DNA of 40,995 bases from Enterobacteria phage FtMidnight (PP430152.1); one strand, 5' to 3'. Shown: positions 28,973 to 30,433, counted from the stretch's first letter. Notes: generated from the letters alone by a model not told the origin. Numbers and translations are program-made.

Positions 28973-29653
28973 TTACTGCTGACCCCAAGGAGCCGCGCCG
29001 CCAGCCGGTGCATTGCCCTGTTGCCAACCGCCTTGCGCTGGCTGTTGCTGTTGTGCCGGTTGCTGCTGTTGAGGCTGACCCCAAGCGGCTTGACCGTTAC
29101 CTTGCTGCGCGGGCTGCTGTTGCGGCTGCTGACCCCAAGCACCGCCATTGTTGGCCGGTTGCTGCTGTTGTGCCGGTTGCTGCTGACCAAAACCGCCTTG
29201 CGCTGGCTGTTGCTGTTGCGGTTGTGCGGCGGCTTGACCTGCACCAGCCCGCCCCGGTTCGTTACCGTTTGCGTCAAACACCTTCTTGACTTCGGTATAT
29301 TGCGGGTCATTCTTTTGCGGGCCAACTTCCACAATGAACGGGATGTTGTGCAACTGGCTGGAATCAGTCACTTGGAACACGCCGGTAACGTGGCAAATTG
29401 CCGAAAGTTGACGGTGTGCAATTTCAACCGTCTGTTGGTTGGAATGGTACAGGTTCAGGCGATAAGCGCCGCTGCTTCCAGCTTGGGGGCCATCGGTAAT
29501 GCGCAAGTTGAGTTGCAGATAACCGCCGTCATTGTTCTTGTTCGCCTTGACTTCAGACGAATCAATGATTACAGGATGTTTGCCAATCGGCAAAGCGCCA
29601 GCGGATTGGGAAGGGTCATACTGGTTTGCGTCAAAAGCTTGGATAAGTTGCAT
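28973..29653 (-). CDS. SSB-like protein (DUF669-like N-domain, Gln/Gly/Pro-rich disordered C-terminus)
   Basis: 226 aa; RBS AAAGGTGA; N-domain motif NLYHSNQQTVEIAHRQLSAIC; C-terminal ~100 aa of QQQPAQGG(W/F)GQQ-type repeats like the E. coli SSB linker but ending PWGQQ; adjacent to Sak4-like gene. Confidence 0.45.
   Translation of the reverse strand: MQLIQAFDANQYDPSQSAGALPIGKHPVIIDSSEVKANKNNDGGYLQLNLRITDGPQAGSSGAYRLNLYHSNQQTVEIAHRQLSAICHVTGVFQVTDSSQLHNIPFIVEVGPQKNDPQYTEVKKVFDANGNEPGRAGAGQAAAQPQQQQPAQGGFGQQQPAQQQQPANNGGAWGQQPQQQPAQQGNGQAAWGQPQQQQPAQQQQPAQGGWQQGNAPAGGAAPWGQQ
28976..29290. repeat. low-complexity CAG/CAA/CCG-rich coding repeats (Gln/Pro/Gly-rich tail of SSB-like gene)
   Basis: near-identical nucleotide blocks such as ccgccttgcgctggctgttgctgttg and ggttgctgctgttgtgccggttgctgctg recur across 29027-29230. 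Confidence 0.7.
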
Positions 29654-29716
29654 GATAATTCACCTTTCTTTGTTTCGGGTTAAGTTCTTTCTTTGGGTAC
29701 GGTGAAAGATTGCCGT

Positions 29717-30433
29717 TTATTGCATGGCTTTGTTAAACAACGCTGATAAATCAGGCGGTTCAACTTCGCCCAAATTACCCAAGCGGTCACGGGCGAAAAC
29801 TTCCGGTATTTCCTTTGTTCGCAATGCCCGCACGGGTTTTGGTTGTCCGGGTATCGACACTTCAGACAAATGCAGCACGTTATCAAACAAATGCGGCATT
29901 TTGACATTAAGGTCTTTGCCCGGAAAGAAAGGCCGCTTTTGCATGACTGGTTCATAAGTTACATTACCATCTTGCAAAATTGTTTGCCGCCCGTTTTCGT
30001 AAGTACCTTGCTTGGCAATCATTACAATATGCTTTTGGGGCATATAGTAAAGGTCATTTGCAATCTTCATTGTGCGTTCTGACATATTGCCGTAAGCCTT
30101 CATACCGTGTTTCACCTTGCCCAATTCTTCAGTAAGGATAATTTCAGCAATGTTTGAAATACTGTCAATTGCCAGCGTATCAAAGTTGCTTGCTTCCCGC
30201 GACTTCATAAACCATTCAAAAAATTCAGTTATCAAAGCCGGTGTATAAGCTTCAAAGGCTGGAATGTTTGAAGTGCGCATTGAAAGCATACCCGGTTCAG
30301 TCACCAGCAACACGGGGCGCGGCGCGGTGTTCACCAATGGGGTTTTTCCGCTACCGGGCGCACCATAAATAATTGACTTCACGCCGTAACGCTTTGCCAA
30401 TTGTGATGCCGGTTTCAAGTTGTTTATGTTCAT
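29717..30433 (-). CDS. Sak4-like RecA-core ATPase (single-strand annealing / recombination)
   Basis: 238 aa from the ATG at 30433 (RBS AGGTGA); Walker A IYGAPGSGKT, Walker B-like TLAIDSIS; size and neighbourhood typical of Sak4. Confidence 0.6.
   Translation of the reverse strand: MNINNLKPASQLAKRYGVKSIIYGAPGSGKTPLVNTAPRPVLLVTEPGMLSMRTSNIPAFEAYTPALITEFFEWFMKSREASNFDTLAIDSISNIAEIILTEELGKVKHGMKAYGNMSERTMKIANDLYYMPQKHIVMIAKQGTYENGRQTILQDGNVTYEPVMQKRPFFPGKDLNVKMPHLFDNVLHLSEVSIPGQPKPVRALRTKEIPEVFARDRLGNLGEVEPPDLSALFNKAMQ

Follow-up and report, generated by a model that had tools for sequence, protein, structure and literature searches.

A conserved tryptophan tip on the disordered tail of a DUF669-family SSB-like protein encoded next to a Sak4-like ATPase in phage FtMidnight

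Enterobacteria phage FtMidnight (PP430152.1) encodes a Sak4-like RecA-core ATPase and, directly downstream, a DUF669-family protein that resembles single-stranded DNA-binding proteins (SSBs). The C-terminal tips of SSBs are hubs that recruit genome-maintenance proteins, and the textbook tip is acidic and ends in Pro-Phe. The FtMidnight SSB-like protein ends instead in a neutral tip, A-P-W-G-Q-Q, at the end of a long disordered tail with regularly spaced aromatic residues. This variant of tip and tail is real and widespread among phages of Gram-negative hosts. It is apparently undescribed, as we found no description in the literature of a neutral or basic Trp tip and Trp-periodic tail in DUF669 SSBs. 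The pairing of Sak4 with a DUF669 SSB is itself ordinary, because it has been published (PMC5928155, PMC8093625) and annotated: up to 80% of sak4 genes adjoin an ssb gene (Hutinet 2018, PMC5928155), and sak4 lies most commonly upstream of SSB genes, DUF669 among them, and of ResIII helicase genes (PMC8093625).

All coordinates refer to the window, which is the whole stretch of DNA that was analyzed (40,995 nucleotides (nt)). The limits proposed for the two genes in an initial annotation (28973–30433, Sak4 directly upstream) proved exact when open reading frames (ORFs) were called. The features of the pair are as follows.

29717–30433, minus strand: Sak4-like RecA-core ATPase gene (ATG at 30433, stop codon 29717–29719 included in the range, 238 amino acids)
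29654–29716, minus strand: intergenic spacer of 63 nt, read from the sequence, with the Shine-Dalgarno element AAAGGTGA ahead of the SSB start codon
28973–29653, minus strand: DUF669-family SSB-like gene (ATG at 29653, stop codon 28973–28975 included in the range, 226 amino acids)
29255–29653, minus strand: N-terminal oligonucleotide/oligosaccharide-binding (OB)-fold domain, amino acids 1–133, including an arm at amino acids 1–22
28976–29254, minus strand: disordered tail rich in Q, A, G, and P, amino acids 134–226, from AlphaFold2 (AF2) predicted local distance difference test (pLDDT) values of 45–55 and composition
28976–28993, minus strand: C-terminal tip A-P-W-G-Q-Q, from the tip consensus and the invariant W223 (codon 28985–28987)

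The tryptophan tip

An exhaustive search with the N-domain of the SSB-like protein yielded 4779 cluster representatives at E≤1e-3 and 2020 at E≤1e-10 (clusters at 50% identity). The 150 best representatives are 46–83% identical to it (46–72% for all but one) and share its architecture almost without exception. When 130 of these 150 were aligned, a single column was invariant, that of the tip tryptophan, W223. Among the 147 near-full-length proteins of the 150, a tryptophan occurs within the last 10 residues in 145, followed by one to six residues (mode, three). The tip consensus is [AP][AP]-W-[GA]-x-[RK], with Pro or Ala at position -2 in 116 and at -1 in 101 of the 147, and Gly or Ala at +1 in 112. 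Of the 145 Trp-tipped proteins, 116 have Lys or Arg after the tryptophan, and 136 have no Asp or Glu in the last 10 residues. Ending in QQ instead of QR is the only atypical trait of the window protein and its nearest relatives.

The tip is also found in distant relatives. We considered ten cultured phages (Loki, CA8, PaMx25, Seurat, JenK1, Mcat23, ZCSE2, N17, rivia, and Stoker), whose hosts are Acinetobacter, Vibrio, Pseudomonas, E. coli, Moraxella, Salmonella, and Rhizobium, plus Serratia for Stoker. In Acinetobacter phage Loki, Vibrio phage CA8, Pseudomonas phage PaMx25, E. coli phages Seurat and JenK1, Moraxella phage Mcat23, Salmonella phage ZCSE2, and Rhizobium phage N17, the protein has a Q/P/A tail with periodic tryptophans and a terminal PPW or APW motif, and a comparable P-loop gene lies directly upstream. 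An [AP][PA]W motif lies four or fewer residues from the C-terminus in seven of the ten. JenK1 and rivia have additional sequence past the motif. The DUF669 protein of Salmonella phage rivia (locus L053, 1486–2499) runs ~200 amino acids beyond ...AAPWEK into an extra domain with an H-S-E...P-C-E-H-C pattern, which we take to resemble the zinc site of deoxycytidylate deaminases. In ZCSE2 (locus L054), the SSB ends at PAPWEE and a separate gene follows; the extra domain of rivia is either a gene fusion or a product of annotation or sequencing read-through. The Stoker homologue (locus L055, 1330–2280) has Phe-based repeats (NGF/QNGF) at both its N- and C-termini and ends in GSPFGQGFNQM, without a Trp tip.

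Acidic C-terminal tails have been stated for DUF669 proteins (PMC4889955), and the window protein does not have one. The initial annotation was thus right that the acidic tip is lacking, as the tail contains no Asp or Glu and ends in APWGQQ, but the protein is not tipless, the conserved Trp motif having gone unnoticed.

The disordered tail

The 92 residues past the sequence GNEPG consist of 39% Q, 20% A, 18% G, and 12% P (89% together), and include four Trp, a single Phe, and a single Arg, with Asp and Glu absent. The five aromatic residues occur in xWG, xFG, or xWQ contexts (GGFGQ, GAWGQ, AAWGQ, GGWQQ, and APWGQ) and may be regarded as stickers. In the AF2 model, amino acids 135–226 have pLDDT values of 45–55, consistent with disorder. 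Among 120 close homologues, the aromatic residues number four to seven and are mostly spaced 13–21 residues apart, 98 tails are free of acidic residues, and nearly all terminate in ...GGWQQG...APAGxAPWGQR. Composition, Trp periodicity, and tip persist in homologues whose N-domains are only 30–45% identical and whose nucleotide sequences are unrelated. The description of this tail as resembling the linker of bacterial SSB holds for its disorder and its richness in G, Q, and P; the likeness to the E. coli linker is compositional only, and mimicry of the host SSB linker in the sense of homology was rejected.

The tail-coding DNA has a GC content of 65.6%, whereas the N-domain has 50.5% and the window as a whole 46.4%. 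Composition-based methods for finding islands or genes could be misled by such a local spike. Three long ORFs that overlap the tail (28387–29334, minus strand; 28876–29289, plus strand; and 29021–29683, plus strand; 137–315 amino acids) were treated as artifacts that probably arise because the CAG/CAA/CCG/CTG-rich DNA of the tail is poor in stop codons. The 315-amino acid ORF consists of a DUF3268 gene, whose true start is at 28914, and a spurious upstream extension through the terminator described below.

The SSB-like protein and its predicted OB-fold domain

The SSB-like protein matches Pfam DUF669 (PF05037; E=2.4e-11, 44.4 bits against a cutoff of 21), with amino acids 7–133 covering profile positions 3–138 of 138, and PHROG6015, 'single strand DNA binding protein' (E=6e-92). 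No Pfam match to classical SSB (PF00436) or to T7 gp2.5/Enc34 SSB (PF10991) was found at E≤0.1, and a scan of NCBIfam returned nothing for this protein. The N-domain is therefore DUF669-like and not a classical SSB, as had been proposed in the initial annotation. A tblastn search of the window with an E. coli SSB sequence entered by hand gave a best E of 1.4 at another place, and no classical OB-domain gene was detected in this way.

An OB-like signal in the N-domain had been set beforehand as a test, and it was found. The AF2 model, built with 130 diverse homologues, has pLDDT of ~97 for amino acids 21–130 and the OB topology β1-β2-β3-helix-β4-β5. This agrees with the prediction that DUF669 proteins are divergent OB-fold SSBs, related to the N4 SSB (98% HHsearch probability; PMC4889955). 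The N-terminal arm is conserved, with F7, P14, and P22 near-invariant. A search of the Protein Data Bank (PDB) with the single sequence gave no matches, and a profile search gave low-complexity noise only. As these sequence searches were uninformative, a fold search was used, in which the closest solved fold to the N-domain was PrgE.

The Sak4-like ATPase and its linkage to the SSB gene

The product of the upstream gene matches Pfam AAA_24 (PF13479; E=5.7e-18, 65.9 bits against a cutoff of 27) and PHROG124, 'Sak4-like ssDNA annealing protein' (E=5.5e-50). Its translation contains a Walker A motif, GAPGSGKT (amino acids 24–31), and a Walker B-like motif, LAIDS (amino acids 87–91). The AF2 model has pLDDT >90, and its best Foldseek match is 8rc5 ('RecA-like Sak4 SSAP'; E=5e-9, TMt 0.67), followed by RAD51 paralogues, RadA, KaiC, and RecA cores. 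At 238 amino acids, the protein is by these Foldseek matches a minimal RecA core, having neither the C-terminal domain of RecA nor the N-terminal domain of Rad51. The assignment as a Sak4-like RecA-core ATPase was thus borne out at the level of domain, family, and predicted fold.

In 43 of 45 related loci, the SSB gene is directly preceded on its own strand by a Sak4 homologue, and in 40 of these 43 the gap is 0–165 nt. The same arrangement occurs in nine of the ten distant cultured phages, with N-domains 29–59% identical. The upstream products in these phages contain YG..G.GKT, the start of a Walker A motif, except in Serratia phage Stoker.

Repeats and variation in tail length

The tail-coding DNA contains one exact repeat of note.

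29026–29053, unstranded: copy 1 of an exact 28-nt direct repeat, encoding QQQQPAQGG, found by repeat search
29191–29218, unstranded: copy 2 of the same repeat, found by repeat search 165 nt from copy 1

The tail was said initially to be encoded by near-perfect nucleotide repeats, which goes too far. Besides this exact 28-nt pair, the repeat search gave one further exact pair, of 14 nt, and the other copies are degenerate (60–86% identical). Tandem Repeats Finder detected only short arrays of two to three copies, and there is no clean tandem array. The identity over 28 nt exceeds that expected from the peptide repeat (P ~0.0015, synonymous-codon resampling). Such identity is thus unlikely to arise from repetition of the peptide alone, which suggests recent duplication or conversion.

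The length of the tail varies among relatives, as had been anticipated, with 29 distinct lengths from 79 to 126 amino acids among the 120 homologues. Seventeen database proteins with identical N-domains have 17 different tails (85–125 amino acids). A metagenomic contig (L008, IMGVR_UViG_3300028601_000007) is 98.8% identical to the window across a 3.7-kb locus, and all nine nucleotide differences in the SSB gene are located in the tail. These amount to a change from GGF to GGAW, in which the neighboring unit has been copied, one in-frame insertion of GCC, and one silent substitution. A third near-identical allele, P0001, has two different one-residue indels. Complete tails carry the conserved tip at their end in all but two sequences, and the reading frame is therefore maintained.

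Two observations concern the quality of such sequences. The tails of P0030 and L015 shift midway in the repeat region to an alternative frame rich in Arg and Ala; these frameshifts may be sequencing errors in low-complexity DNA or products of slippage. At the end of the L008 contig (3695–3833), just past the SSB terminator, the final ~140 nt repeat window positions 28936–29071 in inverted orientation. This looks like a fold-back assembly artifact at the hairpin.

The predicted terminator and the surrounding operon

A terminator had been placed immediately downstream of the SSB gene, and this also stood.

28933–28966, minus strand: intrinsic-terminator-like hairpin of 13 bp with a 6-nt loop, followed by U6, from RNA folding

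The hairpin, at 28935–28966, has the GC core GGCCGGGG/CCCCGGCC, begins 7 nt past the SSB stop codon, and is located between that stop codon and the start of the DUF3268 zinc-finger gene at 28914. A consensus terminator scan missed it, and RNA folding recovered it. With a GC-rich hairpin and a U run after the stop codon, it is predicted from sequence to be a Rho-independent terminator. A comparable hairpin and T-run follow the SSB stop codon in 29 of 35 distinct related loci, as compared with 4.9% of random 80-nt segments, and the annotations of phages Loki and PaMx25 likewise place a terminator there. We infer that the terminator raises expression of the block from MazG to SSB above that of the downstream nuclease and helicase genes.

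The leftward operon consists, in order, of MazG, DUF7173, Sak4, SSB, and the terminator, and past the terminator of the DUF3268 zinc finger, a Cas4-domain exonuclease, a superfamily 2 (SF2) helicase, a processivity factor, and DNA polymerase. The primase is transcribed divergently. The DUF3268 gene (28484–28914, minus strand; E=1e-31) is situated between the terminator and the Cas4-like exonuclease. This slot holds only a 53-amino acid ORF in phage Kakheti25, as opposed to the zinc-finger gene in the window, and a DksA-like zinc-finger gene in PaMx25; it appears to be variable among phages.

Other elements were noted near the pair. The 51 nt that separate the DUF7173 stop codon from the Sak4 start codon contain a perfect 13-bp palindromic hairpin (GGGGCTGTTTG...CAAACAGCCCC) at 30449–30477. 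No clear U-run accompanies it on the minus strand, which is the coding one, and it might act in RNA stability or processing or as a weak attenuator. The region 31555–31865, between MazG and the helix-turn-helix/primase genes, contains two sigma-70-like promoter matches back to back, one on the minus strand (31618 to 31590, TTGACA-17-TATGAT, 11/12) and one on the plus strand (31625–31653, 10/12). Another minus-strand match (31010 to 30982, 11/12) closely precedes the DUF7173 gene. Scanning the window against Rfam and for tRNAs gave no hits.

Proposed function and alternatives

These observations probably reflect a recombination and replication module, consisting of the leftward series MazG, DUF7173, Sak4, SSB, and terminator. 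The DUF669 protein would be a phage ssDNA-binding protein whose OB N-domain coats ssDNA, possibly in a beads-on-a-string filament as formed by PrgE. Sak4 would be loaded on the SSB-covered ssDNA and perform ATP-dependent single-strand annealing, by analogy with the pair of phage HK620, whose members are remote relatives. In the tail of ~90 amino acids, Trp and Phe spaced by Q, G, P, and A would act as stickers and spacers, making weak multivalent contacts that might lead to cooperativity or condensate formation, as has been reported for the linker of E. coli SSB. The invariant [AP]PWGx[RK] tip would stand in for the acidic ...DDDIPF and NDYPPF tips, with the Pro-aromatic anchor kept and the charge lost, and would serve as a peptide that recruits a phage partner, either Sak4 or a replisome protein. 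Small in-frame indels and conversion between repeats would make tail length drift rapidly, with selection preserving the tip and the aromatic periodicity.

Several points weigh against this assignment. As a proxy for docking, Sak4 was fused in cis to the last 70 residues of the SSB and modeled by AF2 with 27 genome-paired sequences, a shallow alignment, and without ssDNA. The Sak4 part was well folded, and the tip had pLDDT of 32–34, with no docking onto Sak4 predicted. Docking on Sak4 is thus unsupported by this model, and a replisome partner is a serious rival, though a fusion of this sort is not decisive, as the HK620 interaction requires SSB bound to ssDNA. The HK620 pair, which is the one studied experimentally, is only remotely related. 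Lastly, PrgE binds dsDNA (double-stranded DNA) besides ssDNA and its function is not known (PMC11137577), so that the match in fold is no proof of a classical SSB role.

It is possible, though on the whole doubtful, that the protein is mainly a replicative SSB whose tip recruits a replisome component or the Cas4-like exonuclease rather than Sak4. Candidate partners are the SF2 helicase, a primase-polymerase, DNA polymerase, and the processivity factor, and adjacency to Sak4 would reflect co-expression. The gene does lie in a replication operon (helicase, Cas4-domain exonuclease, processivity factor, and polymerase, with a divergent primase), the tblastn search with E. coli SSB detected no classical SSB-type OB gene in the window, the AF2 fusion gave no docking of the tip on Sak4, and DUF669 proteins have been read as replication SSBs (PMC4889955). 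However, the adjacency of Sak4 and SSB is nearly universal over very divergent phages whose downstream genes vary, and in HK620 it is on Sak4 that the SSB tip acts (PMC5928155). Roles in replication and with Sak4 are also not mutually exclusive.

Two further explanations seem improbable. The tail might be mostly a neutral expansion of low complexity that slippage in CAG/CAA-rich DNA has generated and that serves only as a passive spacer, with the aromatic periodicity a by-product of duplicating one unit. Hypervariable length at a fixed N-domain, the exact 28-nt repeat, the conversion-like change of F to AW, and the frameshifted alleles P0030 and L015 are all in keeping with this. Neutral expansion does not readily account for composition, Trp periodicity, and tip being kept at 30–45% N-domain identity in unrelated nucleotide sequence, for a tip Trp that is conserved above every residue of the folded domain, or for a frame so maintained that the conserved tip ends all but two of the complete tails. 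There is equally little chance that the protein is not a true SSB but a general OB protein like PrgE, binding ssDNA and dsDNA alike, for example to protect or organize phage DNA. PrgE is its nearest solved fold, with dual binding and no known function (PMC11137577), but the gene is placed consistently between an annealase and nuclease and helicase genes, DUF669 is linked to the N4 SSB at 98% HHsearch probability (PMC4889955), and a classical SSB-type OB gene was not detected in the window by tblastn with E. coli SSB.

A bolder reading, less likely than not, is that a very large clade of phage DUF669 SSBs uses a second 'SSB interaction code', non-acidic in kind, made up of the [AP]PWGx[RK] tip and the uncharged tail with its periodic tryptophans. 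Such a code would be orthogonal to the acidic SSB C-terminus of the host, and phages could engage their own Sak4 or replisome proteins while avoiding cross-talk with the host's SSB-binding proteins. Repeats of xWG inside the tail might serve as weak, multivalent versions of the tip, promoting cooperative coating or condensates. Recruitment through an invariant Trp, in a tip that is neutral or basic and follows a sticker-and-spacer tail, would have a chemistry of its own. It would be relevant to Sak4-SSB recombineering tools for Pseudomonas, Acinetobacter, and Vibrio, and the hypervariable tail length could provide a strain-level marker.

Comparison with known systems

Like E. coli SSB, the window protein has an OB domain followed by a disordered linker rich in G, Q, and P, and the strings WGQPQQ and APAGG are common to the two (E. 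coli sequence entered by hand, aligned without composition correction). The OB families differ, the window protein having no Pfam SSB match or tblastn match. The window tail also lacks the acidic DDDIPF tip, has many tryptophans as compared with one, and is ~1.6 times longer than the E. coli linker. The Pro-aromatic anchor of the Trp tip is common to DDDIPF and NDYPPF, whereas their negative charge and terminal aromatic position are not.

PrgE of plasmid pCF10 (PDB 8s4s/8s4t) assembles on ssDNA into a beads-on-a-string filament in which an N-terminal arm contacts the next monomer (PMC11137577). It has an OB domain with extra helices, and a conserved N-terminal arm (F7, P14, P22) is found in the window protein as well. 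The two are 15% identical in sequence, with no sequence-profile match. PrgE is encoded on a plasmid, within a conjugation operon, and has no Sak4 paired with it; PMC11137577 describes neither a long Q-rich tail nor a Trp tip for PrgE. An analogy in an unrelated protein is provided by McdB, which functions in carboxysome positioning, is disordered and Gln-rich, has an invariant Trp in its last four residues, and has a P-loop (ParA-type) ATPase as its partner (PMC7182216).

In phage HK620, Sak4 (HkaL) is an ATP-dependent annealase that is stimulated by the adjacent SSB (HkaK/Abc1) (Hutinet 2018, PMC5928155). The last six residues of this SSB, NDYPPF, are required for Sak4 loading and stimulation, and the SSB must be bound to ssDNA for the two to interact (PMC5928155). 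The window shares with HK620 a minimal RecA-core ATPase of the Sak4 type immediately upstream of a non-classical phage SSB, in the same order, and a Pro-aromatic motif at the SSB C-terminus (NDYPPF in HK620, APWGQQ in the window); by analogy, SSB-stimulated ATP-dependent single-strand annealing would be expected of the window module. The HK620 SSB has been described as DUF669-type (PMC5928155), and we found no match between it and Pfam DUF669 at E≤0.1. It belongs to PHROG743 and the window SSB to 6015. Its short, acidic tail ends in Phe, whereas the tail of the window SSB has ~90 amino acids, is uncharged and Trp-periodic, and has an aromatic three residues before the C-terminus. BLASTP detected no similarity between the SSB and Sak4 of the window and their HK620 counterparts, and hhalign gave a probability of 4.5%. 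With no usable sequence similarity, the biochemistry of HK620 therefore transfers by analogy only.

Relatives of the phage include Pseudomonas phages 73 and Kakheti25 (Septimatrevirus), to which the window, a near-complete siphovirus genome, is ~74–76% identical in DNA. The N-domains of their orthologues, which are annotated as SSBs (phage 73 ORF031 and Kakheti25 gp33; PHROG 6015), are 86–87% identical to that of the window protein. The Septimatrevirus SSBs are 22 amino acids longer in the tail (248 as compared with 226 amino acids) and end in R rather than Q. They have the same type of tail and the same GGWQQG...APAGxAPWGQ tip, and the order of genes is shared, from MazG, DUF7173, Sak4, and SSB to the Cas4 exonuclease and helicase.

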